Part shown: piece by piece, positions 27,701 through 52,563 of the stretch
Layout: every line of letters starts with the position of its first letter
How positions within the stretch are numbered: position 1 is the stretch's first letter
IMG/VR virus record: IMGVR_UViG_3300045988_098461
Span: 1 to 64,000 of that record
DNA length: 64,000 nt
Strand: one strand, 5' to 3'
Source of the DNA: a virus
Translations under genes and position numbers: made by a program
The notes under the pieces: model-generated
The model's database searches: none
Seen by the model: only the letters and a program-made list of their open reading frames with translations
Told to the model about the DNA's origin: nothing

Positions 27701-29908
27701 CGCTTGCTCTGCCTTTGTAAGTATTCCATTGAATGCCGCTCCTAACTTCTTTGATAAATCTTCATTGGTAAAAGCATCATAGATAGTCTTTGTTGCGCCA
27801 ATAACACCTGATACTTGTGTTTTGAATACATCAATAACAGTTTCACCAGCACCCTTAATTCCATCCCAAGTCTTTTTAAGACCAGCAGTAAAGGTGTCCC
27901 AGTCCATATTTAATACACCTTTAATGGTAGTTCCGAGACCTCCAATAAGATTTACCGCTGCTTTCACGGCAGTTTTGAACGTCTTTACGAAGTTATTACC
28001 GAAGTCACGAAGGGGAGCGTTTGGCTTTGTGAAGCACTTATACAAGTATTCTCCGAAGATAATCACAATATCTGTGATAGACTTAGCAAGAGAACCAAAG
28101 TAAGCCATCAGCTTTGTATAGACCTTCTGACCCTCTGCGGATTTAGTCATCCATGTATGCACCGCCTTGAAAGCAAGAGCGATTGCAGCAATTACCGCAC
28201 CCACAGGTGTTGCACACATTCCCCATAGAGCCTTTGTTACAGACTTGATGGCAGTAAGAGACCCCGTTACGGGAATACCAAGAGCCTTGAAAGCTTCACC
28301 GACCTTACCAATCTCACCTTGCAACTTACCATTGGCAGTCATTACATTAATGATTCCGTCTTTAAAATCATTGAGACCAGACTTTGCTTGTGTAAACTCC
28401 TCGCTAAAACGCTGACCAATGGAAGAGCCGCTTATCTTGGATTTTAGCTCATCAATAGGCTGTGTGATTTTATCCTTTATACTCTGCCCAAAATCAGAGA
28501 TATTTTGCAAGGAATCGGAAATCTGATTACGTAATCTGCCAATAAAAGTCTCTTCGTTCTTCTCACGAATAGCCTCTTGTAATACAGATATATTATTCTT
28601 CGTCTTTTCAATCTCAGATTGCAAATTTCCCAAATCCGCTTTCTGCTTATCACCAAGAGGCTTTCCGCTGAATTTATCGGTTTCCGCTTCAAGCTCCTGC
28701 AATCTTTGCTTACTCTCGTCAAGTTTATTATTAAGCTCAGATAGAGAAGTATCTTCTATATTGATGCTTACAGTTGAAGATGAAGAATCAGGTTGAACGA
28801 TAGCTTTTCCACCTTGTATCTGATTTGCAGCTTCAAGCAAGGTCGTGTACTCACGGAGGTCAGCATTAAGTCTTTGCTGCTCTCCACTCATTGCGTTTAT
28901 CTTAGATTGTAAAGAATCTATATTATCCTGCGCTACCTGTATAAGTTGATTATAGTAATTAGCACCTTGCCCAGATTGATTATCCTCAGAAGAGAGATTT
29001 GATATAGCTTCCTTATAGCTATTAATTTTCTCTTTCTGAATCTCTATTTTCTTTGTTGCCTCTTCAATATTCTTAGCATAATCAGTAGAGCCAAGCTTTT
29101 GCTGAATATCATTGATGGCTTGCTCATATAGTTTAATATCAGCTTTAAGTTCCTTTGTGCTTTCAGATTGCATTCGTTCAATCTCGGCACGACCCGAAGC
29201 AACGGAAATATACTGTTGCAAGGCTTCTGTAAGATGTTTGGTTGCTTCTACGTTCTGATTCTCAGCTTCGGCATTCTGTGTTGCCGCCTCGGCATTTGCT
29301 ACGTGTGCTGCCGCTTCTGCCGAGGTAGCAGTTGCCGCCGTTGTAGCCGTTGCTCCTACAGCAATATTCGTTGCAGATTGTACACTATTAGCACTTGTGC
29401 TTGCAACCGAGAAAGCACTTAATGCCTGATATGCACCATTTACCTGAGAGATAGAATTTCTAACACCATCATAAGATTCAACAAGGTCTTTTACATCACC
29501 TTTCGCCAATTCCAAAGAGTGCTTTTGAGCATCAATCTGCTTTGTAAGCGAACCGAATGCCTCTGAGCCCTTTTCTGTCTTAGCTAACTGCTCGTTAAGT
29601 TTACCGATAGTACCTTCAATGGTTTCTACTCGTCTATTGGCAGTATCAATCATTTCTGGTACTACCTGTATCCCCTTTGTGGCTTCATCCATAGCAGATT
29701 TAAGAACCTGCATAGCCTTGGTGGTCTTTGTCGCAAGGTCTTCATCGGATTGCGCCACATCGTTAAGTGCCTTATTCATTCTCTGAGATAAGGCTTCTGT
29801 ATCAACGCCGACACGATTCAAACCATCACAAAGCTTATCAAGTGATGCTTGAATATCGGAAATATCCATCTGTCCGCTGATTCCAAGTATTTCATCTGCT
29901 GCTGCCAT
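24764..29908 (-). CDS. tail tape measure protein
   Basis: 1714 aa, mostly coiled coil, with central hydrophobic/glycine-rich segments. Follows the chaperone pair. Confidence 0.85.
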   Translation of the reverse strand: MAAADEILGISGQMDISDIQASLDKLCDGLNRVGVDTEALSQRMNKALNDVAQSDEDLATKTTKAMQVLKSAMDEATKGIQVVPEMIDTANRRVETIEGTIGKLNEQLAKTEKGSEAFGSLTKQIDAQKHSLELAKGDVKDLVESYDGVRNSISQVNGAYQALSAFSVASTSANSVQSATNIAVGATATTAATATSAEAAAHVANAEAATQNAEAENQNVEATKHLTEALQQYISVASGRAEIERMQSESTKELKADIKLYEQAINDIQQKLGSTDYAKNIEEATKKIEIQKEKINSYKEAISNLSSEDNQSGQGANYYNQLIQVAQDNIDSLQSKINAMSGEQQRLNADLREYTTLLEAANQIQGGKAIVQPDSSSSTVSINIEDTSLSELNNKLDESKQRLQELEAETDKFSGKPLGDKQKADLGNLQSEIEKTKNNISVLQEAIREKNEETFIGRLRNQISDSLQNISDFGQSIKDKITQPIDELKSKISGSSIGQRFSEEFTQAKSGLNDFKDGIINVMTANGKLQGEIGKVGEAFKALGIPVTGSLTAIKSVTKALWGMCATPVGAVIAAIALAFKAVHTWMTKSAEGQKVYTKLMAYFGSLAKSITDIVIIFGEYLYKCFTKPNAPLRDFGNNFVKTFKTAVKAAVNLIGGLGTTIKGVLNMDWDTFTAGLKKTWDGIKGAGETVIDVFKTQVSGVIGATKTIYDAFTNEDLSKKLGAAFNGILTKAEQAASLAGKIQETQIAINKNKETQLKLDGKIADVRNKIYTLQGKEKIAAIEEAKALVKQKYDFQIKQQQQLVELHEKQAKLHTQSLKDIAAERELRMQVLRTQVQQNSEQRMLIRQEAAAKRSLANKAKSDAKKDATQQKQINSAEGKLDDVIYKNAYERAKAWQSLEQEVTDAKIKAMKEGEEKVIAERKRELSKEIEQIEERKNAAIKAERDRQKAEFDAQQSVIKAKGGKAETWDDKNHLDSKNIQKITEQYTIIEQKTVELYNNEIYADELKSYREYLKEYGNLEQQKLAIVEEYNEKIKEARAKGNIFEEAKLKTDLEEQLKKLNFNDFKDSINWDSVFSDMGRLSKSYLEDLRKKLKDLLGSGTLDIDDMKVVSEQIGKIDDAISEQTDKWGWSNEKVREYNRLLQEAADAQERLRKATVEQYNAQEQQSSTKIAIQKVFAETGVSVSTNKITSQNKSALFNENKMNLSNEQLEKLKKLFDELAVSEVKVGKATKDVKKAQEDANVSQDKARKSIKQIANEWAESIGNVAKKLQEASELIDVLGFGDSDLGKKLKSGADAFNKGSQAASDFATGNYIGAAINGIGAIKSLGSAFGIGNGSNAKEVAETTNRLTESNERLQYSIEQLKSSIDKTSGMSAVSNYQKAYDAQKQINKQSMEILQAQMGYHGSHHSNAYYWNLSAQDYAAINRTLAQQSAVRGGYVNSTISKVNSLEDIYKLTPEQMKDIRTYNQDVWKNMTDQGKYDKTEYWENYTDLAEKLEELTDKINQNLTQTTFDSLKDNFISNLMDMSKSAQDFANDFTTMLNKSMLNFAVDDIANKRLKVLYEKWADKMKQGQLSDDDLNALKKEYDNIVNEGLKIRDNIAAITGYKEAQSQQTATGKAIEAITADQASSLIGIGYAVQIAQEQGNEVRKAIAVDVSFLRIYAEQTYNNISEMRDIQYQGLQQLEAINKNTAPIILIREDIASMYKLMKDKY

Positions 29909-29932: not shown

Positions 29933-30142
29933 TTACATCATGCCCATAAAGAAATCATTAGCAGAAATTGACTTATCTATCTTATGATACTCTTTTTGTG
30001 GCTTCTTTTGCTGTCTGCTGCCTTTTCTCGGTTCATCCTTGGTATTTGTATTAAAGGGCGGAATCGAGCGGTTAAGCAGAATAATATTAAGGTATGAGCG
30101 ATTAAATACGACCTCCTCGTAACTCATACGAAAGTACTTCAT
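29933..30142 (-). CDS. tail assembly chaperone, distal part (position-based)
   Basis: 69-aa ORF with TAATG overlap to the upstream chaperone ORF. Confidence 0.45.
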   Translation of the reverse strand: MKYFRMSYEEVVFNRSYLNIILLNRSIPPFNTNTKDEPRKGSRQQKKPQKEYHKIDKSISANDFFMGMM

Positions 30143-30588
30143 TACTTCTCCGATTGTTGCCCACGGGGAGTCGTTTTCGGCTCCGTCATTATCTTCGTCT
30201 GAGTTAGGAAAGTTATAGAGGTTAAGAAAAAATTTGCATTGAAAGAACCACTTATAAACTTCACAAGCTCATTGAATGCCATAATATCAAGGTGCTTGCG
30301 TATATATCGCCCCCATACCTTGCGTGCCCACTTCTTTCGAAAGGCGCACACGATAAAAATCTCGCTCATTAAACGAGCCGTCTCAGAGTGCTCAAACAAA
30401 AGAGGGATGATATTCATCATATCGCCTTCTTTCCATGTTGGTTCTTTGATAGAGTTACCGAATACACCCATTTCATAAATCTGCATAAAGGTAAGTGGCT
30501 TCACTTTAAAGCGAAACATACCAACCTTAATCTTTACAGATGCCTCGGAAAGCGTTTTTGCTACCTTTTCCTTATCTGATGTTTTCAT
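30142..30588 (-). CDS. tail assembly chaperone (position-based)
   Basis: 148-aa ORF between the major tail gene and the tape measure. Confidence 0.5.
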   Translation of the reverse strand: MKTSDKEKVAKTLSEASVKIKVGMFRFKVKPLTFMQIYEMGVFGNSIKEPTWKEGDMMNIIPLLFEHSETARLMSEIFIVCAFRKKWARKVWGRYIRKHLDIMAFNELVKFISGSFNANFFLTSITFLTQTKIMTEPKTTPRGQQSEK

Positions 30589-30611
30589 ATCAAAATATGT
30601 TTTATAACATA

Positions 30612-30656
30612 AAAAGCGGTGCGGCTTGGGAAAGTTCCCTTACCTCACCGCCTTTT
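30612..30656. terminator. hairpin/attenuator after the major tail gene
   Basis: AAAAGCGGTG...CACCGCCTTTT with flanking A/T runs. Confidence 0.5.
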
Positions 30657-30696
30657 GAAGTTTAATTTTAAATCATATAAAAGATAAAAGCTTTAC

Positions 30697-31266
30697 TTAC
30701 TTCACAATAGCCGCAGCACTAATATCCTTTGTGAGGATATTGCGATGACCGCTCTTCTTGTCACCCTTTGCATCGAATACCGCCATCTGACGGAACTCAA
30801 TGTTAAGATTAGGAAGTCCACTCTTACCGATAGAACCACTGCGAGTGATTGTAAGTTTCATCTTAGACCACTGGAAGGTACGAGAAGGAATATCATCCAA
30901 ATATTTTGTTACAATCTGTACAGCCTTGTAAATCTCGGTTTCTTGCGGAAGCTCATTCAACCAAGCATCCTTACCACCAGTACCAGAATCCTTTGTGTAA
31001 CCAAGAAGCTTCGTAAAGTTTTCTTCTGAGAAATCGTATGTCTGCAAGGTAAAGCCCTTTGTTGCTGCTGATGTGGTCAGCACTGCGTAAGGGTCTTCTG
31101 AATCCTCAACCTCTACATCCGATGTCTGTGCTGCCTGGTCGTTAAAACTCAAGCTACCAGAAACGACAGCCTTAATTTTGTCGCTCCATGTTGTTGGGTA
31201 GCCGCCATTTTCGACACAATCGGCAAAACGGAAGCTTTCCAAGCCATATACACCATTCTTTGCCAT
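30697..31266 (-). CDS. major tail protein (position-based)
   Basis: 189-aa ORF upstream of the chaperones, followed by a hairpin typical of highly expressed tail tube genes. Confidence 0.55.
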   Translation of the reverse strand: MAKNGVYGLESFRFADCVENGGYPTTWSDKIKAVVSGSLSFNDQAAQTSDVEVEDSEDPYAVLTTSAATKGFTLQTYDFSEENFTKLLGYTKDSGTGGKDAWLNELPQETEIYKAVQIVTKYLDDIPSRTFQWSKMKLTITRSGSIGKSGLPNLNIEFRQMAVFDAKGDKKSGHRNILTKDISAAAIVK

Positions 31267-31270
31267 AGTT

Positions 31271-31675
31271 TTATTCTTTTAAATTATTATACGTTACATT
31301 AAATTTCATATTGATGTAATAAGTGTTATCACTATCACGAGTAGGGCGAGAGATAGAATAGAAATCGAAGTAACAGCCACCGAGGTAAGTACCGTCACCA
31401 AACAGAGAAAGAATCTTCTCCGAGTAATCAGAGAGCTTCTTTATGTTAGGTAGATTTGATAAGGTCTTAGGGCAATGAATATTCAAATTCACTACACCCT
31501 CATTAATAGCATCACTATACACAAAGGGAAGATGATTGATTGCGATATAATCACAAACCGCCAACTTCTCGGGTATCTCATATTTAAAGATACGACCTTT
31601 CTTTATGCCTATTCTCTCAACATTATCATTGAGATACTTAAATAATGCCGTAACGGCTGTATCACCGAGTATCAT
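31271..31675 (-). CDS. tail terminator/neck protein (position-based)
   Basis: 134-aa ORF between the gp10-like gene and the major tail gene. Confidence 0.35.
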   Translation of the reverse strand: MILGDTAVTALFKYLNDNVERIGIKKGRIFKYEIPEKLAVCDYIAINHLPFVYSDAINEGVVNLNIHCPKTLSNLPNIKKLSDYSEKILSLFGDGTYLGGCYFDFYSISRPTRDSDNTYYINMKFNVTYNNLKE

Positions 31676-31677
31676 AT

Positions 31678-32157
31678 CTAACTATCGCTTTTAATCATTT
31701 CAGCTACTTCTTCAAAAATCTTCTTCATTTCGTCACGAAGGAAATACTTTGTAAGGTGTAAGACATTGTAACCTTTATCCTCTACATGTTTTCCGTAATT
31801 CATACCAGCAACAATGACGAGAGAGTACCCTTTGGGTGCTACTACCCCTTCTTTCTGTGCATACTCACTGAGTGCAGCACTTACGCCTTCCTGTCCTCCT
31901 TCCGCTTCTTCTGCCTTTGGAATCTTACCAACTGCCGAGGTGATGAGTTGACCATCAAGGTAGAGAGCGAAAGAAATTGAGTTCTTTAAATTTGCAGTTC
32001 GGTCTTGATAACCTTTATTTTCTTTGGAAAAGGTGACCGCTTCTTCGGCAAGTTGCATCAAACGCATATTAAGGTAGCTGATAATCTGCTACCTCTTTTC
32101 ATTCAACCTTTTCTGTAAGGCTTCACGACCTTTGATTTGTAATTCAACCTTTGCCAT
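31678..32157 (-). CDS. HK97-gp10-like neck/tail-completion protein interrupted by in-frame TAG (codon 23)
   Basis: ATG 32157, TAG at 32089-32091, same frame as track ORF 31678..32067. Full length aligns residue for residue with the intact paralogue 53008..53484, including the 22 aa before the TAG. Confidence 0.6.
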
Positions 32158-32168
32158 ATTACCGCCTA

Positions 32169-32504
32169 TTAGAGCCAAATTCTAAGATAGCGTTTTTTTA
32201 AGGTTACGAAGCCTTTAACCTCCATTTCCTTATCAATCGTGCCATCTTTCTTGGTTATCCAAACCTTTTCGCCTTCCTTCGGTATGAGAGGGTATTTTGC
32301 TTTTGAGAGAGGAGCATAGATTTCGTGTGAATACACGTACTGCTGCCCGTCTGCCAGAGTGATAATCTTCGCCTGCGAATTAGGCAAAATAACGCACTTT
32401 CCAAAGGTTTGCCATTCTCCTTCGGGCTGTTCGATAGGATTTCCGTCCTCATCAAAGCCATCTTGTGGAGCACCTTTTACTTTAAGTATATCTTCAAAGT
32501 TCAT
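32169..32504 (-). CDS. head-tail joining protein (position-based)
   Basis: 111-aa ORF in the connector region. Confidence 0.4.
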   Translation of the reverse strand: MNFEDILKVKGAPQDGFDEDGNPIEQPEGEWQTFGKCVILPNSQAKIITLADGQQYVYSHEIYAPLSKAKYPLIPKEGEKVWITKKDGTIDKEMEVKGFVTLKKRYLRIWL

Positions 32505-32519
32505 ACGCTATCTATATGA

Positions 32520-32873
32520 TTACCATACCTTCACACTCTGAACCCAATAATCATCAGAAGTACTATCAATAACAAGGTCAGCATCCAATCCAGCATCCTT
32601 CGCAATAGATTTAATCATCTTATCAATAAGATTCTTGTCGTTCTTGTAACTCTGAGAGATACCGCCAACATTCTCACTTGATAATGGATTCATCTTGTAG
32701 AGGATACGCATAGCCGCATAGGCTACGGGTTTCTTTACCGATACAGAGTATTCATCAGCCACGGATGCCGTGATGCTAAACTTATCAGTAGCATCAATAA
32801 ACATCTTCTCCAAGGTCTCATCTGAGGTAGAGAAAGGCTGAATCTCGCTTGCTATGGCTTCTGAAATTGTCAT
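32520..32873 (-). CDS. head-tail connector/adaptor (position-based)
   Basis: 117-aa ORF directly downstream of the capsid gene. Confidence 0.4.
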   Translation of the reverse strand: MTISEAIASEIQPFSTSDETLEKMFIDATDKFSITASVADEYSVSVKKPVAYAAMRILYKMNPLSSENVGGISQSYKNDKNLIDKMIKSIAKDAGLDADLVIDSTSDDYWVQSVKVW

Positions 32874-32940
32874 GCTAATCTTGTTATTTTATGAAGTTTC
32901 ACTTATTAAATCAAAATATCCATAACTGAGGGTCAGTGCA

Positions 32941-34035
32941 TTAAGCACCAACCTTCAAGATAAAGAAGTCTTCGATACCATCGAATACTGGTTGCATCCA
33001 CATTTCGTTGGTAAGGTGATAACCCTTCTTATCTCTCCAATAACCGATAAGGTTGTTATCGTATGTAGAGTAAGAAACGCCATCAACTGGGTCAATAGCC
33101 TCCAAGCACTCTGCGCACTTAGGTACAGCCACCTTATCGGCACACATCGCAACAACTCGGTTATCTGGGATAAGGTTAAAGACTGTCTTGTCAGGCAGCT
33201 CAACAAACTTATCTTCATCAATCTGAATTGTTGGCAAGAGGATAGAGCGCAGATAGATATTCATCTGGTCAACGCTAATCATCGGTGCAGTAGGATTGAT
33301 GGTAATCTGACCGAGGTTCAAGCGGAAGGTGTCCTTAATCTCCTTTGCCTTACACATTGCGAAGAATGTGTTCTCAGACATACGAAGACGCAGAATCTTA
33401 CGACCCTTTTTGCGAGCCTCGTCCTTCAACTTCTTAATATCCTCAATAGGAGTTGCGTTCTCCATTCCCCAATTTGTGGTAGCAGAAAGCTGCTTAACAC
33501 CCAAATTAAAGGTATAAGATACGTTAGCCTTAGAGTTATTGGTACGTGATACAGTCTGAGTACCCTTGAACAATCCCTCGAAGTACAACATATCAATACG
33601 CTTATGAGGAGAGATAACCGCCAACTCAAAAGGTTTGAATGAGTACTTGATAAGTTCATCGTACTTAGCATTGAGCTGTGACTGTGTATAACCGCCACGT
33701 CCCGACATATCATTAAACTTACCCTCCAAGAGGTGCATCTGTTCGAGGTAATCGTTATCAAGCTCCCACTCATCGGCGATACGACCGATAGAGCCAGTAA
33801 GCTGACCCCAATCAGGCATAGTATGCAATGGACGCTCTGCGTTCTTAGCGACAACAGAACCAACCATAGCAGCAGCATAGGTAGCCATATTTGCCTGATA
33901 TACCTTTGCAGCACAATACTCAACAGGCTTCAACTCGTTCTTCCACTCAGCCTTGTAGGTGGAAGTCTTCATGTATTCGTCAATGTAGGTCTGAAAAGAC
34001 TTTGGGTCTTGCAGATTCTTCAAAATACTATTCAT
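32941..34035 (-). CDS. major capsid protein
   Basis: 364-aa ORF after the scaffold and decoration-position genes. Size and order match lambda E-like capsid modules. Confidence 0.75.
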   Translation of the reverse strand: MNSILKNLQDPKSFQTYIDEYMKTSTYKAEWKNELKPVEYCAAKVYQANMATYAAAMVGSVVAKNAERPLHTMPDWGQLTGSIGRIADEWELDNDYLEQMHLLEGKFNDMSGRGGYTQSQLNAKYDELIKYSFKPFELAVISPHKRIDMLYFEGLFKGTQTVSRTNNSKANVSYTFNLGVKQLSATTNWGMENATPIEDIKKLKDEARKKGRKILRLRMSENTFFAMCKAKEIKDTFRLNLGQITINPTAPMISVDQMNIYLRSILLPTIQIDEDKFVELPDKTVFNLIPDNRVVAMCADKVAVPKCAECLEAIDPVDGVSYSTYDNNLIGYWRDKKGYHLTNEMWMQPVFDGIEDFFILKVGA

Positions 34036-34060
34036 AATCTATAATCTCCACTTTTAAAGG

Positions 34061-34639
34061 TTACTGAATCTTAAACAAAGCGATACCATTTGCTCTGATA
34101 CCTTCCTTAATCTCATCATTGATAGGATAAGGGAGTGAATCTTCCTCTACCTCCATTACCTGTAAGGTAGGAGTAGCTGCGATAGAAGACTCTTGGTCTC
34201 TTACATCGAGAGTATCATATGAGAAGCCAAGAAGTACGTCCTTGGTCTTATCGTAATCCGATACAATCGCATTTGCGGCAACTTCGTTAGCGAGTTCTGA
34301 TACAGTTAATGTATCTACACCATCGGAAGAAGTAATTGCCGAAATGGTCGCACCAGCAATCTTATCATTAACCTGGAATAAAGAACCACTAGCAATCTTT
34401 AAGGTTGTAGCAGCCTTGGCTGCTTTTTCTGTGACCTTTGCAGTCTTTACAACCTGTGCCTTACCACCAGTTACAAGTCTGAGAACTGTACCCTTCGCTA
34501 CAAACTTTAAAGTAGCTGGAAGGTTGGTGCGGTCGAGGTCATAACCACCTTGTCGGCGAAGGCACTGCTCTTCAAGCCAAAGTGCTTCCTTGATATCCTC
34601 TGGCTTGGTTCTATGCAAAAAATAGCCTCTGTTTGACAT
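34061..34639 (-). CDS. head protein in decoration position (hypothetical)
   Basis: 192-aa ORF between the scaffold and the capsid gene. Confidence 0.35.
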   Translation of the reverse strand: MSNRGYFLHRTKPEDIKEALWLEEQCLRRQGGYDLDRTNLPATLKFVAKGTVLRLVTGGKAQVVKTAKVTEKAAKAATTLKIASGSLFQVNDKIAGATISAITSSDGVDTLTVSELANEVAANAIVSDYDKTKDVLLGFSYDTLDVRDQESSIAATPTLQVMEVEEDSLPYPINDEIKEGIRANGIALFKIQ

Positions 34640-34684
34640 AATTTTCTTCTTTTAAAGAGTTTAACATAATTCATTGATAATGCC

Positions 34685-35371
34685 TTACTCCTTTGGAGCA
34701 TTACGCTCCGAGAAGCCTTGCATTTTTGTAATGAAATCATTCTGCTCGTCTTCGGGAGAGGTTGCCTTGGGTGCTTCAACAAAATTGCCGTTTGCTACAA
34801 GTGACTGCTTCAATGCTGTCCAATCATCGGCACATTGCTGTGCGAGAGTTTCAAGATTCTCTTCCTTGTCGAGCTGATAACGTGAACGGAACTGCTGCGG
34901 AACGTCCTTCAATTTTTCGCTCTTACCGAAAAGGTCATCAAGACGTGCTCTTTCTTCCTTTTCCTTGTATGGGGCAATGGCGGCGGCTACAGCTTCGCTA
35001 ACTGCTTTCTGGGTACTTTTGGTAGCCTCGGCAATCATCTGCTGAACCTGCTCTTGCGTAAGCCCTGTTGGAGGTACTGGAGGGGTAGGAGGAACTGGTG
35101 GAGTAGGCTTATGGTTAGGGTCGTTAGGGTCAATCCATCCATCGAATTTCTTCGTTGTTTCACTGACCGCACGATTGAATGATGATTGCATCATACCAAC
35201 ATAAGGTTCAACTGCCGAGATAGCACTCGTTACATCCTCGTCCTTTGACTCATCTGTTAGACCACGACTTGCAACAATCAGGTCAACCAGCTTTGAAAGT
35301 TCATCCTTCTTCAAACCATACTTTGCAAATGATGTTTTGGCAGAAGCAAGCACTTTTTCTTTTATTGTCAT
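34685..35371 (-). CDS. scaffolding protein candidate
   Basis: 228 aa, helical and acidic, with PTPPVPPTPPVPPT linker. Immediately upstream of the capsid genes. Confidence 0.55.
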   Translation of the reverse strand: MTIKEKVLASAKTSFAKYGLKKDELSKLVDLIVASRGLTDESKDEDVTSAISAVEPYVGMMQSSFNRAVSETTKKFDGWIDPNDPNHKPTPPVPPTPPVPPTGLTQEQVQQMIAEATKSTQKAVSEAVAAAIAPYKEKEERARLDDLFGKSEKLKDVPQQFRSRYQLDKEENLETLAQQCADDWTALKQSLVANGNFVEAPKATSPEDEQNDFITKMQGFSERNAPKE

Positions 35372-35415
35372 AGTAATTCTGTTTTAAACGTTAATAAATA
35401 AATAATTTCTGATTG

Positions 35416-35423
35416 CAAAATTA
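35416..35423 (-). promoter_or_regulatory. -7 box (TAATTTTG) upstream of the scaffold/capsid operon
   Basis: Reverse complement TAATTTTG about 45 nt upstream of ATG 35371. Confidence 0.4.
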
Positions 35424-35575
35424 CTATTTCTATTAGTAAAATAATAATAAATAATAAAAGCTGTGTAAACAAATGCTATTTTTGACGATTTTCTTGCGGT
35501 CTAAGCGGCTTTCTTTTAGTTTATGTATAGTTATTAAGAAACAAAAATAAAAGGCAAGATAGCCAATATTCTTGG

Positions 35576-35932
35576 TTACTTTGCCTTGCGTTGTATCAAA
35601 TCTATCTTTGCCTTAACCTTCTTCGGATTCCTAGCATCGTGATTACTCAATCTTACCACATGATACCCAAGCCGCCATATACCCGAAGAGCGGTTACCAT
35701 CCTTGCGCTTTTGGTCTTTAGTAAAATGATAACCACCATCGAGCTCAATAATCGTTTTTATCTCGGGCAGATATATATCAGCGAAGTATAGCTTTCTGCC
35801 CGTGACTATCGGCTGCTGTGGTATCACCTTATATCCTAACAGAGTGCAGATTTTCGCCGCAGCCTTCTCCGCATCGGTTGTATGTGAAAGTAGGTCGCAG
35901 CGAATCTGATATATGAGTTTCTTGGATAGCAT
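35576..35932 (-). CDS. DUF559/Vsr-like endonuclease-fold protein
   Basis: ADIYLPEIKTIIELDGGYHF...GYHVVRLSNHD matches the DUF559 restriction-endonuclease-like core. Confidence 0.65.
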   Translation of the reverse strand: MLSKKLIYQIRCDLLSHTTDAEKAAAKICTLLGYKVIPQQPIVTGRKLYFADIYLPEIKTIIELDGGYHFTKDQKRKDGNRSSGIWRLGYHVVRLSNHDARNPKKVKAKIDLIQRKAK

Positions 35933-36402
35933 TATTTATAATACTTTTTGAAATTTTCTTCGTTTGCGAAGTATTTTCCTGTAGTAGATGTTACTTCTTG
36001 CTTGAATTTTTTAACGCCATTAGCTAGTTTATTAAACTTATCTTTTGGCATAGCACTCTTAATAATAGATACGAATGCTTCGTGCGCTTTATCTGTTACA
36101 TTCGGCTTTAATATGGCATTAAAAATGCTTCTATCATCGCTGAAATTTATATTTCCAGAGATATTTTCTCCATGATTTATCGCACTCATAATTTTCGTTA
36201 CATCGTACGTTGCATTTTTGAGGAGTTGATACAAATCTTGTTTATCATATTCACTCAAATTGCTTATAGCACTATTTGGCGAGTTTGTCTTCAAGACTAT
36301 ATTTTCATTTGTCCCTCCCCCGATTGCGCTCTGCGCAAAGGTTCTGCTTGCGGCAGCATTTGCGCTGCTCACGGTTCTTGTACCGCCACTTGCCTTACTC
36401 AT
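35932..36402 (-). CDS. hypothetical head-module protein with conserved N-terminal tag
   Basis: N-terminus MSKASGGTRTVSSANAAASRT is paralogous to the N-terminus of 61297..61689. Confidence 0.5.
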   Translation of the reverse strand: MSKASGGTRTVSSANAAASRTFAQSAIGGGTNENIVLKTNSPNSAISNLSEYDKQDLYQLLKNATYDVTKIMSAINHGENISGNINFSDDRSIFNAILKPNVTDKAHEAFVSIIKSAMPKDKFNKLANGVKKFKQEVTSTTGKYFANEENFKKYYK

Positions 36403-39736: not shown

Positions 39737-39868
39737 ATGAAAAAAGAAAAAGACATGATGAATCCATGTAATTGGAGAACCGAAGATGTAAAAGATGCGG
39801 TACAAGCAGCAATGCTCGCCGCTAGTGGAATTATCTTAGCGTATGCTGTTATCTGGCTCGCTTACTAA
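39737..39868 (+). CDS. small C-terminally anchored membrane protein
   Basis: 43-aa ORF preceded by ATAGGAGATACGAAAA. C-terminal hydrophobic AAMLAASGIILAYAVIWLAY. Confidence 0.35.
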   Translation: MKKEKDMMNPCNWRTEDVKDAVQAAMLAASGIILAYAVIWLAY

Positions 39869-39881
39869 AAAAGGAGGTAAT

Positions 39882-40163
39882 ATGGAGATAGTAACAACAT
39901 TAGTTAAGTTCCGTTGTCGCAAGGATGAAATGATGGAGCAATCAAAGAATGCTCAGATTTTTCTCTTTGAAGGCAAAGAAGGTAAGACTAAGGTATTCGT
40001 GCCTAAGTCTAAACTAATTATCAAGGATGATGCTTTAGATAGCAACTATAATCTTTGCATCATACCTAAATGGGTATTTCTTAGCACAAAGAACCTTTCG
40101 CAGAATGTTGAGTTGGTAGGAGAAACGCAACACATGGAGGTTCTCAATGATATTGAAGATTAA
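39882..40163 (+). CDS. hypothetical protein
   Basis: ATG 39882 after AAGGAGGTAAT. 93 aa. Confidence 0.5.
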   Translation: MEIVTTLVKFRCRKDEMMEQSKNAQIFLFEGKEGKTKVFVPKSKLIIKDDALDSNYNLCIIPKWVFLSTKNLSQNVELVGETQHMEVLNDIED

Positions 40164-40219
40164 TAGTATATATAGTAATAATTATTTTGTTTAATGTATT
40201 AAAAATAGGAGATACAACA

Positions 40220-41194
40220 ATGAACACAATGGCAATGAATTTGATGGCACAGCCAAGAGTAAATGAAGTAGCGGTTGCAAAGCAGCCAGAGTTGAAGAGT
40301 GATAACATGAATCAGTTCTTGGATTTCGAAACATCTAAGGTACAGATTCTGACAATCGACCAGCTTGAACGCACCGAGAAAGAGAATGATGTGTACGGAA
40401 AGCCTTTGAAGGGTATATATCATTTTGACCTCATTCATCAGGTTGAAGACTTGTGCGAGAAGCACGGCTATAAGGCTGAGATTTACGACCTCTTTGCGGC
40501 GAATAACAAAGACCGCAATACTCCAGGTGTTACCCGTTTGCCTCAAAAGGAAGCTTTGATGGGTGATAGAGCTGTAGAGGCTCATATCCTTCGCCGAGTA
40601 TTCTGTAATATTCGCTTGCGTGACTTTGATAAAGGAGAGGGCAATGATGAGATTACAACCAATATGGCGGTATCATTCCATCAGAAGGGTATTCAGTTAG
40701 GTATCGGTAGAAACGTAGTTATCTGTCACAATCAATGTATGCTTAGTGCTGAACATTACGCTGCTACCTACTCAGATATCAATAGCGGAAGAGGAGCTTT
40801 TAAGCTCGATGAGCTTCTTCAACGTGCTGATGCTTGGCTCGCTAATCTAAGAGGTATCATTGATACTAATGATGAAATGATTGAGCGTATGAAGAATCGC
40901 GAGATTAAAGCACAGGAAATGTTTACCATCATCGGTATGCTGACCTCGCTTCGTGTTGCTGCTGAAACGAAATATAAAGGCATCCGCAACCCTCAGGTCA
41001 TTCCTCTCAATCAGGCACAGATTGGTCGCTTGACCGAGAAAATGATGATTGCCTACTACGAGCGCAATATTGTTACCGCTTGGGATTTGTACAATGCGGC
41101 TACAGATATGTATAAGTCAACTCAGCTCGACCAGCCAATGATTCTTTCACAGAACTTGGCAATGAGTAGCTTCATTCAGAATAAGTTGATTTAA
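40220..41194 (+). CDS. DUF932-like phage/plasmid protein (tentative)
   Basis: 324 aa. ATG 40220 after the ATAGGAGATACAACA motif. Family call from overall resemblance only. Confidence 0.45.
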   Translation: MNTMAMNLMAQPRVNEVAVAKQPELKSDNMNQFLDFETSKVQILTIDQLERTEKENDVYGKPLKGIYHFDLIHQVEDLCEKHGYKAEIYDLFAANNKDRNTPGVTRLPQKEALMGDRAVEAHILRRVFCNIRLRDFDKGEGNDEITTNMAVSFHQKGIQLGIGRNVVICHNQCMLSAEHYAATYSDINSGRGAFKLDELLQRADAWLANLRGIIDTNDEMIERMKNREIKAQEMFTIIGMLTSLRVAAETKYKGIRNPQVIPLNQAQIGRLTEKMMIAYYERNIVTAWDLYNAATDMYKSTQLDQPMILSQNLAMSSFIQNKLI

Positions 41195-41244
41195 GATATA
41201 ACTACATAAGATTGAATATTGAAGTCATAAGAAAGTCGATTTTG

Positions 41245-41345
41245 AAGAGCCATAAAGCCGCCGTGAGGTGTCGGCTCTTTCTCTTAGAAGAATTATTTTA
41301 TTCAGATAAATCTTGCCGTGAGGTAAGTTTTAAGACGTTATTTTT
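41245..41345 (+). terminator. two tandem terminator-like hairpins sharing GCCGTGAGGT
   Basis: AAGAGCC...GGCTCTT (41245-41279), and CTTGCC-GTGA-GGTAAG (41312-41327) followed by a T-rich run. Confidence 0.5.
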
Positions 41346-41541
41346 GAAAATTTTATCTTTTTGCCCTACGGCGGTATGGCATTTATATCCCGAGAAAAAC
41401 CAATCGCACGGGGTGCGTGAGCTGTAGAATAGTGGTTCCGACTTCTTTTAGTTAGAATAGATGTATGTATTATTTTCCATGCTTTTAAAGTATATGCGAA
41501 GATACTCCGTAATAAGCAGCTCTTAATAAGCGGAGGTTGGC

Positions 41542-41566
41542 GAGGGTTCGATTCCCTCTCTTGGGG
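41542..41566 (+). other. tRNA-like 3' half (T-arm plus acceptor 3' strand), not a complete tRNA
   Basis: GAGGG-TTCGATT-CCCTC followed by TCTTGGG-G. No canonical D-arm or anticodon arm could be folded upstream. Confidence 0.45.
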
Positions 41567-41590
41567 CTATGTTTTTTTAATATATATAAT

Positions 41591-41977
41591 ATGACAGATT
41601 TTAACGGAAAATTAAATTTGCTGAAGCTCAAAAGAGCTGGCGTAATGCAAATCCAAGGTCGAACCGAGGTGCTTCGGTGTGTGGTTATTCCTATCGAAGA
41701 TAATAGTATCTTCGTTACAACAGATGATAATAATCAACCAAAGGCTGCTTATCTCGACCTTACTGCTTGGGAATTAAAGAACCCTAAGTATGACGAGACT
41801 CACATGATTAAACAGTCGTTGCCTAAAGAGGTTCGTGAGAAAATGACAGATGAGGAGAAAAAGGCGATGCCTATCCTTGGTGGTTTAAAGCCTGTAATTT
41901 TTGAAAGTCAGAATGCGGCTTCTTCTTGTGCTGCACCTTTTGCTCAAACACAGGATTTGAATGACTTACCTTTCTGA
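41591..41977 (+). CDS. putative ssDNA-binding protein
   Basis: ATG 41591. 128 aa ending in the acidic tip QDLNDLPF, reminiscent of SSB C-terminal DDxPF tails. Confidence 0.45.
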   Translation: MTDFNGKLNLLKLKRAGVMQIQGRTEVLRCVVIPIEDNSIFVTTDDNNQPKAAYLDLTAWELKNPKYDETHMIKQSLPKEVREKMTDEEKKAMPILGGLKPVIFESQNAASSCAAPFAQTQDLNDLPF

Positions 41978-42029
41978 GCACAGACTCTCTTAAATAATGG
42001 TTTTAGATTAGTTTTAGATTATTAGAAAT

Positions 42030-42521
42030 ATGAGAATTAGAACGAGTAATTGGTTTGAGGTAGGAATCCGCTACCAAAAGACCCAAGAAGATGGTTCAGA
42101 GAAATCTGTGACCGAAAAGTATGCGATTGATGCCTTATCCTTCACGGAAGGTGAGAGCGCAATCACAGAAGAAATGGCTGCTTATATTAGCGGTGAGTTC
42201 AAGGTTAAGTCGATGCAAGAGGCTTCGTACAGAGAGGTGTTCTTTTCTGATAAGGATGATGATGATTGCTGGTACAAGGCAAAATTGCAATTCATTTCCT
42301 ATGATGATAAGACCAACAAAGAGAAGCGTAGCAACGTGACATACCTCGTGCAAGCAAAGTCTATGCACCGAGCAATCAGTAACATTGATGAGGTAATGGG
42401 GAAGACCATGATAGACTATGAAATCATCGGTCTCAGCAAAACCAACGTATACGATGTCTTCGAGCATAAGACAAAAGAGGAGAAGGAACAGAAGTCTAAC
42501 GAAGAAAAGAAGGAGGAGTAA
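42030..42521 (+). CDS. DUF4494-like protein (tentative)
   Basis: NWFEVGIRYQKTQEDGSEKSVTEKYAIDALSFTEGE pattern. Confidence 0.45.
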   Translation: MRIRTSNWFEVGIRYQKTQEDGSEKSVTEKYAIDALSFTEGESAITEEMAAYISGEFKVKSMQEASYREVFFSDKDDDDCWYKAKLQFISYDDKTNKEKRSNVTYLVQAKSMHRAISNIDEVMGKTMIDYEIIGLSKTNVYDVFEHKTKEEKEQKSNEEKKEE

Positions 42522-42524
42522 AAT

Positions 42525-43061
42525 ATGGCAAGACCTAAGAAAAATGGCGTAGAACAGCCTTTAAATTTAGATGGCAATAATATGCCTATGGAGAACGAGA
42601 ACGCTCAGCAGAGCCACGAAAATGCGGCTCAGCAGCAAAGTGAGGAGCAAGTTGAGGAGTTTGAGGAAGAGGATGAGCTCCCTTTTGAAGTAGAGGATGG
42701 AGTTCCTTCCCCTATTGATAATGATAGTAATTCATTTGTTATCTATGCTCCAAATGATATTGAAACTCGTAAGGGGCGAATGGAGGTGGTAACGGGCATT
42801 ACTCTTAAAGAGGGTTATCGTGGATTGATTGTTCCAATTACATTTAACGCTCTTCATGGTTTGCCTACGGAGTCAGATTATCGCCTACAGCACTCCGATG
42901 TGATTTCTACGCATGTAGGGGAGAAGGAGATGGTAAGACTTGTACTCTCCATCAATGATGAAACAATGATACAAGAGCAGACGAACTTCGGTTCACGCTC
43001 TCGCTACCTTATCATTCCGAAGGGCTCTCCGCTTGCCGTTCTTTTGATTTTTAAGCTGTGA
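42525..43061 (+). CDS. hypothetical protein with strongly acidic N-terminal region
   Basis: EEQVEEFEEEDELPFEVEDG, then a beta-rich C-terminal domain. Confidence 0.5.
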   Translation: MARPKKNGVEQPLNLDGNNMPMENENAQQSHENAAQQQSEEQVEEFEEEDELPFEVEDGVPSPIDNDSNSFVIYAPNDIETRKGRMEVVTGITLKEGYRGLIVPITFNALHGLPTESDYRLQHSDVISTHVGEKEMVRLVLSINDETMIQEQTNFGSRSRYLIIPKGSPLAVLLIFKL

Positions 43062-43123
43062 AATATATAATTGCGGATGGAGGTCTATTCTATAGTATCT
43101 CCTTCCGCTCTATTAAGTAAACT

Positions 43124-43276
43124 ATGACAGAAGTTGAACGTAAAATGCGCAGAAGTAAATACGGCAAGACCTACTATCAAAAGCATCGTGAAGCTTGCAT
43201 CGAAAGAGCCAAAGCTTGGTACAATGCTCATAAGGAGTATCGTAGGCTGTATATGCTTGCGTATAATGGTAAATAG
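43124..43276 (+). CDS. small basic protein (hypothetical)
   Basis: 50-aa ORF MTEVERKMRRSKYGKTYYQKHRE... Ends in a TAG that is in frame with the next ORF. Confidence 0.35.
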   Translation: MTEVERKMRRSKYGKTYYQKHREACIERAKAWYNAHKEYRRLYMLAYNGK

Positions 43277-43285
43277 TATTTTTAT

Positions 43286-43480
43286 ATGGATGAGTTGGAT
43301 AAAATTAAAGAGTTGAATACTCAATATAAATTGCTGCGAAATAACGGAATGGTGGTAAAAGTAGACCTCGTAACCAATGTGGGAACTTATGTAGTAAAGA
43401 ACCCTAACATTATTAGCAAGGTGCTTGACTTACTTATCCGTGAATCGCAGAAGCAGATAGAAAGTGAGGTGAATACATGA
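43286..43480 (+). CDS. hypothetical protein
   Basis: 64-aa ORF. Confidence 0.45.
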   Translation: MDELDKIKELNTQYKLLRNNGMVVKVDLVTNVGTYVVKNPNIISKVLDLLIRESQKQIESEVNT

Positions 43481-43719
43481 TAGGATTGAATGATAGACCA
43501 ACAAGAGCAAAAAGGGTTGTTGTGGTTCAGTTAAAAGACAAAAAGCCTGAACCTTTCCTTACTTGCCCAGAGATTTATTTAAAGTACGATAAAGAGAAGA
43601 TTGGCATCTGTCTTAATGCTCTATGGAATGCTCTTGCTAAAGATGGTTGCTACGAGAATAAGAAATGCAAAATCTCTTATCAGAGTATCGAACAATTAAA
43701 AACATTGGCATGGGAGTAG
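43477..43719 (+). CDS. hypothetical protein
   Basis: 80-aa ORF with ATGA overlap. Confidence 0.45.
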   Translation: MIGLNDRPTRAKRVVVVQLKDKKPEPFLTCPEIYLKYDKEKIGICLNALWNALAKDGCYENKKCKISYQSIEQLKTLAWE

Positions 43720-44252
43720 GTAATAAAGGGTGTTGTGTGCTAAAATATCCTCATTCTATAGATGATGGATTATTAGCTCTGTACGCACAGGGGCTTACCA
43801 TACCCGAAATTAGTAAAAAGGTAGGTATACCTTATGAAACAGTACGGCGGCGACTAAAAGGAAATGGAGTTAAACCTGCATCACCACGATTTATCGCTAA
43901 GTATGGTGAAATCCGTTATTTAGGGCGTTTCCGCTACTGGAGCGAGGAGGAGGAACAGAGATTTATTAGATTATTTCCCTTTCGTACAAATAAAGAAATT
44001 GCTAAAATCTTCTGTTGTAATATCAGAACAGTTAAGAATAAGGCTATGTCTCTTGGGTTAAGAAAAGATGCCGTATGGTTGCATGAGTATAGATTATCTT
44101 CCATGAAGATTGCTGCCATTATATCCAAATCAAGCTCTAAGAAGTTTAGGTTTAAGGAAGGGAATAAATTCGGACATAAGTTTAAGAAAGGGTTTAAGTA
44201 CGATAAAGAATTTTGGGAGAAATATAGAAGAGGTGAGGTTTCTTTGCCTTGA
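43710..44252 (+). CDS. DNA-binding protein with two HTH/Myb-like motifs
   Basis: GLTIPEISKKVGIPYETVRRRLKGNG and WSEEEEQRFIRLFPFRTNKEIAKIF. Start at ATG 43710. Confidence 0.5.
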   Translation: MGVGNKGCCVLKYPHSIDDGLLALYAQGLTIPEISKKVGIPYETVRRRLKGNGVKPASPRFIAKYGEIRYLGRFRYWSEEEEQRFIRLFPFRTNKEIAKIFCCNIRTVKNKAMSLGLRKDAVWLHEYRLSSMKIAAIISKSSSKKFRFKEGNKFGHKFKKGFKYDKEFWEKYRRGEVSLP

Positions 44253-44285
44253 TTACATTTTCTCGGAATATAAAATGAATAAACT

Positions 44286-44921
44286 ATGAAATTTAATAAA
44301 GAACTATCGAAGGATTTGCAAGTAAAGACAATTATGCAAAACTTCGACAAAAAGCAAGCCGAATGCGATGCTCTTAAAAAAGAAAACGAAGAATTGAAAA
44401 AGAAGTTAGAGCAGAAGGATATTCTGTATCGTAATATGCTCAATCGCTTTAGTAATATGAGTAGTCAAACAAATATTGACTATAAGGAAAGATACGAACA
44501 GCTCAAAGCTGAAAAGGCTGAGAGCGGTATGAGATATAGCCGAATCCTTAACGATTTAAATAAGGCTTATGGAATGCTTGAATCCGTCAATGGTATTATG
44601 AATAGCGCAAACGAAAAGATAGAAGCATTCTGCTCTGATAATATGGTTAAAAACGATATTCGTTCCAAAGTTATTGAGCCTGCAACAGATAGCACTCCAT
44701 CTTCTGTAAGCGTTAAAGAACAGAAGTTCGTTAGTTATGTCCGTGAACTTATTGCTAACTTTAAGGAAACAGGCTCTCTTCGAGGAATAGCTATGATAGC
44801 AAAAGACTATGGGGTTAGTTCTTTATCTAAGGAGCAATTCTTTCGCTACGGATTGAACAATGAGGTTATAACTGATGAATATATCATTAGTATTTACGAA
44901 AAGGCTAAAAAACATTTGTAA
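44286..44921 (+). CDS. hypothetical coiled-coil protein
   Basis: 211-aa ORF. Confidence 0.5.
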   Translation: MKFNKELSKDLQVKTIMQNFDKKQAECDALKKENEELKKKLEQKDILYRNMLNRFSNMSSQTNIDYKERYEQLKAEKAESGMRYSRILNDLNKAYGMLESVNGIMNSANEKIEAFCSDNMVKNDIRSKVIEPATDSTPSSVSVKEQKFVSYVRELIANFKETGSLRGIAMIAKDYGVSSLSKEQFFRYGLNNEVITDEYIISIYEKAKKHL

Positions 44922-44922
44922 T

Positions 44923-45213
44923 ATGGAAGAAACTAAGTATAATAATGATGTACCTTACGAAAGAGTAGTGCTTAGAGTGTTAGAAAACTACTTGAAGATG
45001 CAAATCAAGCTAACTCGTTACCAGAAGAAGGTCAAAGAGCAAGGTGAGTTGCTTAATAAATTAAACAACAAACACAATGATTACGAGAAGGTCGTAGCTG
45101 AGCGTGATGAGCTTCTCCAAAAGAATAAAGAACTTTCTCGGCAATTGAAGATTTACGAAGGTGTGCGCAAATACTTCAATAGTCAAGTCTCAAAAATAGA
45201 AACTGATAAATAA
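44923..45213 (+). CDS. hypothetical coiled-coil protein
   Basis: ATG 44923 (MEETKYNN...). Confidence 0.5.
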   Translation: MEETKYNNDVPYERVVLRVLENYLKMQIKLTRYQKKVKEQGELLNKLNNKHNDYEKVVAERDELLQKNKELSRQLKIYEGVRKYFNSQVSKIETDK

Positions 45214-45222
45214 TATATCAAT

Positions 45223-45645
45223 ATGAAGAAGATTTTATCTTGGTGCGGTTCTCATACAGATATGCTGTGTGCATTCTTTCTGATGGGATTCTGTTTCAAT
45301 GCGGTGAAGGATGGTTGGTCTGAGGCGATATTATTCTTGCCGTTTATCGTTACGTGGATATATGTCTATTACTTACAGAAATTTATTTGTCGTCTTATCA
45401 AAAAGAACGAAGAGTTGAAAGAAATCAATAAGCAGCTTGAAAAGGCTTACGAAGAAAAGACCTTGGCGTTTATCAGAACTGATGATTTGAAGATGCTCTA
45501 CATCTATAAGTATTTGTTGGCTCAAAATAATGTGGATTTATGTAAGCGAAAGATTAACTGTACGAAGTATCTTGAAAGAAGAGAATATTATGAACGTATG
45601 ATTGAATTTTTCGTTAAGGATATTAAGGCTAAAGAAATGCAATAA
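45223..45645 (+). CDS. hypothetical membrane-anchored protein
   Basis: N-terminal hydrophobic segments, then coiled coil. Confidence 0.5.
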   Translation: MKKILSWCGSHTDMLCAFFLMGFCFNAVKDGWSEAILFLPFIVTWIYVYYLQKFICRLIKKNEELKEINKQLEKAYEEKTLAFIRTDDLKMLYIYKYLLAQNNVDLCKRKINCTKYLERREYYERMIEFFVKDIKAKEMQ

Positions 45646-46046: not shown

Positions 46047-46074
46047 AAATATCCGATTTTCTTAGTTTTGTATT

Positions 46075-51699: not shown

Positions 51700-52563
51700 A
51701 TGGACGAAATTAAAATTTTGCACAAATCTACTTTCCTAGGTAAGGAAATAGATGTATGGGGAACTTTTGATAACCCATTATTTCGGGCAAGTGATGTAGC
51801 AGATTGGCTACATAACACAAATGTCTCTAATATGGTTAAGAAGGTTGATGAGGACGAAGTGACTAAGTTTAACTTAGGCAGTCGTCAAGGTGAAACTCTT
51901 TTTCTTACAGAGAATGGTCTTTATGAGATACTTATGTTATCTCGCAAGAAGGAAGCCAAGCAGTTTAAGAAGGGAGTAAAAGCTATCCTTCACGAAATCC
52001 GCACCAAGGGCGGCTACATTGCTTCTTCGGTCAATGATACTCCCGAAGCTATCATGGCACGAGCCTTGAAGATTGCGGATGAGACATTGAAGCGGAATGA
52101 GCAAAGAGTTCGTGAGCTTGAAGCTTAGACCGAGCAGCAGGCACAGACCATCGGCATTCAGCAGAAAGAACTGACTGTTGCCGCACCAAAGGTAAAGTAC
52201 TACGATGATACACTTGCATCAACGGACTGCCTTACCACCACACAAGTTGCTGATGACCTCGGTATCAGCGCAAGAGCACTCAATCAACAACTTTCCAATG
52301 CAGGTATTCAATACTTTCAATCAGGTTCTTGGCATTTGAAGGGCAAGTTCCGTGAATGGCAGCTCGCAAGCACCCGAACCTACAATTATATCAAGGGTGA
52401 TGGTTCTACGGGCACAAAAGTAAACCTCGTATGGAATCAACGTGGCAAGCGTTTTATTCTTGCTCTCTATAACAACGACTTTAATGTGAAAGATGCTATC
52501 GCTGAAATCAACGGCGAGAAGAGAGCTGCGCTTGTATCTAAAAACAATCAGTCTAACTTTTAA
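51700..52563 (+). CDS. BRO-N / KilA-C antirepressor interrupted by in-frame TAG (52126-52128)
   Basis: N-terminal BRO-N pattern (FRASDVADWL...LFLTENGLYEILMLSRKKEAKQF). After the TAG the same frame encodes APKVKYYDDTLAS...TTTQVADDLGISARALNQQL...WNQRGKRFI (KilA-C pattern) up to TAA 52561-63. Confidence 0.6.

Follow-up and report, generated by a model that had tools for sequence, protein, structure and literature searches.

An in-frame TAG codon in the neck gene of a putative Segatella copri prophage is very probably a recent amber mutation

Does a TAG codon that interrupts a late structural gene of a gut phage encode an amino acid, or has the gene been broken by a mutation? Recoding of stop codons is described in gut phages, among which crAss-like phages, Lak phages and the Garnet/Topaz prophages use genetic code 15, with TAG reassigned to glutamine (bioRxiv 10.1101/2021.08.26.457843, PMC9523058). 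The question was raised by a minus-strand gene in a 64,000-nt stretch of viral DNA (positions 1 to 64,000 of the IMG/VR record IMGVR_UViG_3300045988_098461; hereafter, the window). This gene starts at the ATG at 32157-32155. Its codons 1-22 read MAKVELQIKGREALQKRLNEKR and are followed by TAG (32091-32089), beyond which the frame remains open as far as the gene's own TAG (31680-31678). Sequence and translation agree on the in-frame TAG at codon 23 (TAG-23) reported by the first-pass annotation. The program-made list of ORFs contains the gene only as a 129-aa ORF starting from the ATG at 32067.

The first-pass annotation favored translation through a recoded or read-through TAG, and named initiation downstream of the stop and a recent nonsense mutation compensated by the second copy as alternatives. 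Our analysis points to a recent nonsense mutation, for which such compensation would be possible: TAG-23 represents, with high probability, a recent CAG-to-TAG nonsense substitution in the neck gene of a standard-code S. copri prophage. The features of the window that are relevant to this question are presented in Table 1.

Table 1. Coordinates of the interrupted neck gene, its surroundings and related features of the window
Feature	Position	Strand	Remarks
Neck-module gene (HK97 gp10-like / 'Ne1' position)	31678..32157	-	159 codons; TAG interrupts codon 23
In-frame TAG, codon 23	32089..32091	-	from CAG (Gln) by a single C-to-T change
Candidate restart ATG, codon 31	32065..32067	-	129-aa product; 21 nt past the TAG
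Neck gene's own terminator TAG	31678..31680	-	followed by ATA TGA
Inverted repeat AGGTAGC-9 nt-GCTACCT	32071..32093		RNA fold; perfected by the C-to-T change
Upstream neighbor, 111 aa, head-closure position	32169..32504	-	by position only; phrog_13251, function unknown
Downstream neighbor, 134 aa, tail-terminator position	31271..31675	-	by position only; phrog_5597, function unknown
Major capsid protein, module anchor	32941..34035	-	Phage_cap_E, E = 2.9e-5; phrog_29, major head protein
Intact paralogue, 158 aa	53008..53484	+	early-gene block, downstream of the antirepressor gene
Antirepressor gene (Bro-N + ANT)	51700..52563	+	second private in-frame TAG at 52126-52128 (codon 143)

The interrupted gene is located within a siphovirus head-tail module, in which the genes are arranged in the following order: capsid gene (Phage_cap_E), genes for proteins of 117 aa and 111 aa, the neck gene, genes for proteins of 134 aa, 189 aa, and 148 aa plus 69 aa, and a gene encoding a tape-measure-sized protein of 1714 aa. 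The 111-aa upstream neighbor is of the same length in 15 of the 15 listed members of its cluster. The ATG of the gene for the 134-aa protein overlaps the TGA that comes after the stop codon of the neck gene. Placement between the capsid/connector genes and those for the major tail protein, chaperones and tape measure fits HK97 gp10-like proteins, the neighbors having been assigned by position; Lopes et al. (2014) reportedly named this position of type-1 siphovirus necks 'neck protein 1'.

The first-pass label of an HK97 gp10-like neck protein is supported indirectly. The Pfam family PF04883 (HK97-gp10_like) is matched by 19 of the 80 aligned homologs of the neck protein (best E = 1.5e-5), and the gene order agrees with this assignment, whereas neither the neck protein nor its paralogue has a Pfam match of its own at E <= 0.1. 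The neck protein is also without a match in NCBIfam. An exhaustive search retrieved 895 relatives of this protein. Like the HK97 gp10-like proteins, it belongs to a family with homologs matching PF04883, has a length within the range of about 150-160 aa, and has its gene flanked by the positions of head closure and tail terminator, with the major tail protein encoded farther downstream. It differs from them in falling below every Pfam threshold and in matching no solved structure; the duplicated copy in the early region of the same genome is likewise unusual for this group. The match to phrog_5377 covers residues 12-152 of the neck protein, and the paralogue also matches this family from residue 12, so the N-terminus of the family spans the site of the TAG.

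The AlphaFold2 (AF2) model of the neck protein (pLDDT 90) is composed of a long helix (residues 11-46) followed by an alpha/beta core. A Foldseek search of the PDB with this model matched no solved structure (best E = 0.09), and a profile search of PDB sequences returned nothing relevant. Predicted viral proteins in BFVD are matched by the model, and among them is a 'putative tail-component' (E = 3.8e-9).

Comparison with related loci showed the interruption to be recent. Relatives of the neck protein are encoded by 72 IMG/VR loci. Codon 23 is CAG in nearly all of the close relatives and CAA in the next tier, while distant ones have GAT, GAC or GAG. Among these loci, only L049 shares the TAG of the window. 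Over all fetched loci (106 sequences) the counts are CAG 92, CAA 7 and TAG 7, and every one of the 25 contigs from an independent metagenome scan combines CAA at codon 7 with CAG at codon 23. The alignment of the TAG with a Glu codon, as first described, is correct for the paralogue (GAG), but in orthologues the corresponding codon is CAG or CAA, i.e. Gln. In the nearest allele (L001), 479 of the 480 nt match the window gene. Since the sole difference is at nt 67 (T in the window, C in L001), the TAG arose by one recent C-to-T change, and it is a derived, minority allele of a CAG codon. The intact protein of the window haplotype (P0121) is encoded on 181 public contigs, compared with 15-19 contigs for the 129-aa product, counted as the exact product called by public pipelines. 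An exact 28-mer around the TAG had no match in IMG/VR, the C/T version of this 28-mer had none in GTDB species-representative genomes, and megablast of window positions 30000-36000 against GenBank phages also gave no match.

These data account for the observation on which the case for translation of the TAG had been built. The first-pass annotation regarded conservation of the codons upstream of the TAG as a sign that it is translated. The family does show constraint on the 66 nt in question: a set of 45 distinct intact alleles gave dN/dS values of 0.069 (codons 1-22), 0.04 (codons 1-30) and 0.082 (codons 31-159). This purifying selection was measured in intact relatives, and the window copy, which matches its nearest intact allele at all 479 remaining nt, has not had time to decay. 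The upstream region is therefore undecayed because the mutation is too recent, and the conservation does not imply that the TAG is read.

We also looked for other broken neck alleles by using the exact 129-aa product as the query; this lookup finds exclusively lesions located upstream of Met31. Ten contigs were examined. Six of them (L152, L154, L155, L158, L159 and L161) carry TAG-23 in a gene 100% identical to that of the window. The remaining four (L153, L156, L157 and L160) have, on the window haplotype, CAG at codon 23 and TAA at codon 7 (TAA-7; CAA to TAA at nt 19 of the gene). The occurrence of TAA-7 on the same haplotype rules out an explanation specific to TAG. Five of the TAG-23 contigs (L152, L154, L158, L159 and L161) differ from the window by 0-1 mismatch per kb over 20 kb. 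The TAG lineage is thus nearly clonal and is present in at least six assemblies with widely spaced run accessions. In the sixth contig (L155) the TAG-23 allele lies in a recombinant background, and the TAA-7 contigs represent four different mosaics. The TAG haplotype of L049 is 27 nt away from that of the window, with differing sites as near as 10 nt upstream and 14 nt downstream of the codon; its TAG would therefore have arisen either independently or by conversion over a tract of less than 24 nt.

Other lesions in the population are not stop codons. The 118-aa alleles P0124 and P0125, present on 26 and 20 contigs, respectively, contain a one-base deletion causing a frameshift at codon ~111. 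Several of these contigs also carry a broken tape-measure gene, which indicates general decay. In one further contig (L191), of low coverage, the neck gene is frameshifted near codon ~88.

The pattern corresponds to an ordinary amber mutation in a minority prophage lineage. As in ordinary amber polymorphism or early pseudogenization of a prophage, (i) a single C-to-T change has affected a Gln codon, (ii) the allele is in the minority, (iii) the rest of the gene is untouched, and (iv) lesions of other types occur elsewhere in the population. Unlike in the simplest case, the allele occurs in several assemblies and in a recombinant background, the same site is mutated on a second haplotype, and the genome contains a diverged second copy of the gene. 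The spread of the alleles (TAG-23 in at least six assemblies and a recombinant, TAA-7 in four mosaics) counts to some extent against a simple nonsense mutation, as they were not quickly purged, which hints at tolerance.

If TAG-23 is an ordinary amber mutation, ribosomes would stop at codon 23 and full-length protein would be made at most by background near-cognate read-through, which could matter if few copies of the protein are needed per virion. Restart at Met31, 21 nt past the TAG, is mechanistically plausible and would give a 129-aa product. Judged by the AF2 model, this product would be missing the N-terminal arm together with 20 residues at the start of the 36-residue helix 1, a region that is under purifying selection elsewhere. 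Residues 23 and 31 are both placed within the single predicted helix 11-46, so the earlier description of the product as a protein without its first helix does not fit the model, in which Met31 lies in mid-helix. The prophage would then either have recently lost the ability to join heads and tails or owe its viability to the paralogue, whose product is 52% identical to the neck protein.

It is possible, but on the whole unlikely, that the nonsense alleles are tolerated through this restart, i.e. that the 129-aa product is functional enough to make stops before codon 31 nearly neutral. Both TAA-7 and TAG-23 lie upstream of Met31, an ATG follows the TAG within 21 nt, and the alleles occur in several mosaic backgrounds with the remaining gene 100% identical to the intact allele. 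The first of these points is affected by ascertainment bias, as the contigs were found through the exact 129-aa product. Moreover, tolerance of such stops is difficult to reconcile with the strong purifying selection on codons 1-30 and with the position of codons 23 and 31 in one helix. Met31 itself is not conserved in the paralogue or in distant homologs, and the frameshift alleles at codon ~111 are beyond such rescue. A 127-aa form (P0294) that starts at the equivalent of Met31 was considered as evidence of restart and set aside, since it comes from a single 545-bp contig with 1.7x coverage and is uninformative.

A further explanation involves the second copy of the gene. As reported by the first-pass annotation, the window contains an intact paralogue with a conserved N-terminus (14 of 22 residues identical in the N-terminal stretch); over their full length the two proteins share 52% identity (BLASTP E = 2e-59), a similarity well beyond chance. 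The slot occupied by the paralogue is filled in 10 of 79 antirepressor-centered loci, including that of contig 129654, as well as in the more distant relatives L064, L065 and L067 (about 10001-10470; about 67% identity). Since distant relatives fill the same slot, the paralogue has long been conserved there and did not arise by recent duplication. Its exact protein occurs on 18-22 contigs, and one member of its cluster is named Segatella copri. In L204-L206, three contigs from a single project, a tandem duplication of 31 nt in the N-terminal region (about 2930-3000) shifts the frame of the paralogue.

We consider it rather improbable that loss of the neck gene is compensated, or even favored, through this copy, so that knock-outs recur specifically in paralogue-bearing prophages, driven for example by escape from a defense system sensing the neck protein or by host-driven grounding of the prophage. 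Such a relationship would agree with the presence of the paralogue in the TAG-23 lineage of the window, including scaffold_480 of ERZ28596186, and in the independent TAG-23 contig 129654. According to our own count, the neck gene is disrupted in ~2 of 11 genomes with the paralogue and in 0 of ~28 without it (Fisher p about 0.07), an association that is not significant. Truncated alleles are listed for the neck cluster, and no truncated forms were found among the listed cluster members of the eight neighboring structural genes; this control is biased by length-coverage cut-offs of the clusters, and the contig counts suffer from pseudo-replication, as the run accessions are consecutive. Unbiased sets contain a disrupted neck gene in 1 of 58 and 1 of 25 sequences, similarly to other genes. 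The broken tape-measure gene in several frameshift contigs suggests general decay instead, the paralogue is itself broken in some contigs, and 52% identity may be too low for replacement of a ring-forming neck protein.

A broader proposal, which we regard as distinctly doubtful, is that the neck gene is a preferred target of repeated knock-out, with the paralogue supplying the function or taking it over and with contributions from both selection and a mutational hotspot at codon 23, or alternatively that the ambers are suppressed conditionally, upon co-infection by TAG-recoding phages of Prevotella. The lesions behind the idea of repeated knock-out are TAG-23, which occurred twice, TAA-7, and the frameshifts at codons ~88 and ~111. 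That codon 23 became TAG more than once was weighed as a sign of selection, and the value of this argument is reduced by the small number of targets: by our count the gene contains ~10 codons that a C-to-T change can convert into a stop, 4 of them among the first 30. What is novel in this locus, beyond an ordinary amber mutation, is the possibly non-random targeting of the neck gene, together with the conserved second copy.

Decoding of TAG as glutamine, by code 15-like recoding or by amber suppression, would yield the full-length protein whenever a suppressor is present, and this is very unlikely to be the explanation. The suppressor might be encoded by the phage outside the window, might be a host supE-like tRNA, or might be provided by a co-infecting TAG-recoded phage of Prevotella such as a Lak megaphage or a Garnet-type prophage. 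Decoding as Gln would be consistent with the fact that all four in-frame TAGs of the two TAG-23 genomes replace CAG codons, which is also a point against the preferred explanation, as well as with the persistence of the TAG-23 allele across several assemblies. TAG-recoded phages and a TAG-recoded prophage of Prevotella have been described (bioRxiv 10.1101/2021.08.26.457843, PMC6784885). Against this stand (i) CAG or CAA at codon 23 in 99 of the 106 sequences, (ii) the TAA-7 and frameshift alleles of the same gene, and (iii) the mutational spectrum: C-to-T at CAG is the commonest route to an amber codon, and the CAA-to-TAA and CGA-to-TGA changes are similarly frequent in relatives.

The genetic code of the window argues in the same direction. 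ARAGORN detected no tRNA genes in the 64-kb window, and in 60 related loci no suppressor tRNA was found, the only tRNA being a lone tRNA-Met. By a crude estimate, code 11 gives a coding density of 0.808, and treatment of TAG as a sense codon gives 0.818, a gain of 1%; a preprint screen for recoded phages used a rise in coding density of >10% for contigs of 5-100 kb (bioRxiv 10.1101/2021.08.26.457843). The long ORFs of the window end with TAA (50), TGA (9) or TAG (8), and reading through TAG merges just two real genes, the neck gene and the antirepressor gene. The neck gene's own stop codon is TAG in 104 of 104 aligned relatives, and other TAG stops are kept in 74 of 75 and 45 of 45 cases. At the end of gene 49471-50319, relatives have TAG (36), TAA (9) or TGA (1), and such interchange is the pattern of a true stop. 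TAG is therefore a true terminator in this phage group, which uses the standard code, and the recoded or read-through TAG proposed by the first-pass annotation finds no support. In-frame stops of all three types occur in relatives (about 10 in ~320,000 and about 20 in ~153,000 aligned codons), mostly by C-to-T changes at CAG, CAA or CGA, while the tape-measure gene of the relatives has no in-frame stops in 82,876 aligned codons.

The ORFs 49471-50319 and 50323-51066 were examined as a candidate single gene interrupted by TAG, and this was rejected: the start of the second ORF is that of an ordinary N6/N4 methyltransferase, every relative has the two called as separate genes, and the stop between them can be TAG, TAA or TGA. 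The TAG stop of gene 48057-48416 (48414-48416) is replaced by CAG in 10 of 48 relatives, so the length of the C-terminus varies.

Like the code-15 gut phages, the window has an in-frame TAG in place of Gln, within a late structural gene of a phage whose host belongs to the Prevotella group. Their defining features are absent from the window, which has only two in-frame TAGs in 64 kb, conserved TAG terminators, no suppressor tRNA, a coding-density gain of 1%, and relatives with CAG. A programmed read-through site, with a conserved stop and a conserved context, is also not seen, as the relatives carry sense CAG or CAA. The mutation itself created a hairpin, imperfect in relatives, whose 5' arm contains the TAG; the 131-nt region analyzed folds with a z-score of -1.57. 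Finally, a sequencing or assembly error, suggested by the single-base difference from the commonest allele, can be practically dismissed, given that the identical allele occurs in at least six other assemblies from different runs (the six TAG-23 contigs named above).

The locus therefore serves as a cautionary case: in a gut phage, a lone TAG that replaces Gln within the frame of a late gene resembles recoding, and population data reveal an ordinary, recent amber mutation. Conservation upstream of a stop codon speaks for read-through only where relatives conserve the stop as well. Should the side observations hold, i.e. the repeated lesions of the neck gene, the conserved copy in the early region and the persistence of nonsense alleles in several mosaics, they would provide a small natural system for the study of neck-protein redundancy and prophage inactivation in an important gut bacterium.

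The sequence surrounding codon 23 suggests a possible contribution of local structure to the mutation. The C-to-T change extends the perfect stem at this site from 2 bp to 7 bp, and among 6000 random transitions in the window only 88 create such a stem (p about 0.015). Quasipalindrome template-switch hotspots of mutation, of the E. coli thyA type, are said to have been characterized by the Lovett laboratory. Such a hotspot may possibly have contributed to the change at codon 23, including its recurrence in L049. The likeness consists in an imperfect inverted repeat made perfect (7 bp) and in the recurrence of the change; the difference is that the present case is a coincidence of sequence only, and that the perfect stem of the second haplotype would be 5 bp. 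Two other mechanisms were considered. Damage or mutagenesis was rejected, since it would have left an excess of C-to-T among the private substitutions of the window, and these are balanced (C>T 25, T>C 25, A>G 21, G>A 14). A deamination hotspot at a methylation motif (GCWGC) receives no support from the other nonsense sites.

Most of the private changes of the window fall within a single segment of the 1714-aa tape-measure gene (28373-29634, minus strand), which contains, within 1.3 kb, ~100 substitutions absent from all IMG/VR relatives. This cluster is a recombinant patch, and it is common to the clonal Logan contigs L152 and L154.

The second private TAG of the window is located in the antirepressor gene. 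Codon 143 of this gene is CAG in 53 and CAA in 25 of 80 relatives, and rarely GAG or GAC. The intact protein of 286-287 aa (Bro-N + ANT) is encoded in L162, L163 and L165-L170, and L164 has a 142-aa form with the same lesion as the window. Scaffold_480 of ERZ28596186 combines the neck TAG and the exact paralogue with an intact antirepressor gene; the antirepressor TAG is therefore the younger of the two. Two nonsense changes among the ~45 private point changes outside the recombinant patch are, as a rough estimate rather than a computed value, about what unselected mutation would give. Locus L073 (IMGVR_UViG_3300045988_129654), which also has TAG at codon 23 of the neck gene, contains a second Gln-to-TAG change in a VRR_NUC-like early gene, at residue 100 of the homolog of window gene 45645-46046. 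Both TAG-23 genomes thus carry two ambers each.

The window consists of phage DNA throughout. Its left part encodes an S24 repressor (155-781) and the early proteins RecT, AAA and MBL, and its right part an SPP1-type portal, a 934-aa protein with an ADP-ribosyltransferase domain, and an ADP-ribosylglycohydrolase. Proteins identical to those encoded by the neighbors of the neck gene are named Segatella copri or Prevotellaceae and are located on contigs of up to 3.75 Mb; in particular, a protein identical to the 134-aa neighbor is found in Segatella/Prevotella genomes on contigs of up to this length. Judging from these names and from the S24 repressor, the element is probably a temperate siphovirus, or prophage, of Segatella (Prevotella) copri. 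The host identity rests on the names of identical proteins, because the paralogue has no relative among the GTDB representative genomes.

Several other features of the window were observed. Between the genes for portal and minor-head proteins and those for scaffold, capsid and tail lies an 18-kb early block on the plus strand (39843-58455), which is an unusual layout of a head module; the flanking segments (58493-63203 and 6787-39407) are both on the minus strand. A metallo-beta-lactamase-fold protein encoded at 5100-5834 (plus strand) is weakly similar to Apyc1, an anti-Pycsar nuclease, with a match (E = 4.5e-5) that does not reach the Pfam cut-off. Within a gene for a 3042-aa protein, the segment 16000-22000 (minus strand) has a G+C content of 0.46-0.48, against a value near 0.39 elsewhere; this part of a giant tail or host-recognition gene may thus be mosaic or foreign. 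Beside the portal gene, 58493-61297 (minus strand) encodes the 934-aa protein, whose domain is of the ADP-ribosyltransferase exotoxin type (PF03496), and the adjacent divergent gene (57342-58130, plus strand) encodes the ADP-ribosylglycohydrolase (PF03747), both matches having been taken from identical genes in L162-L167. From their predicted domains, the two proteins could constitute an injected toxin and its antidote.
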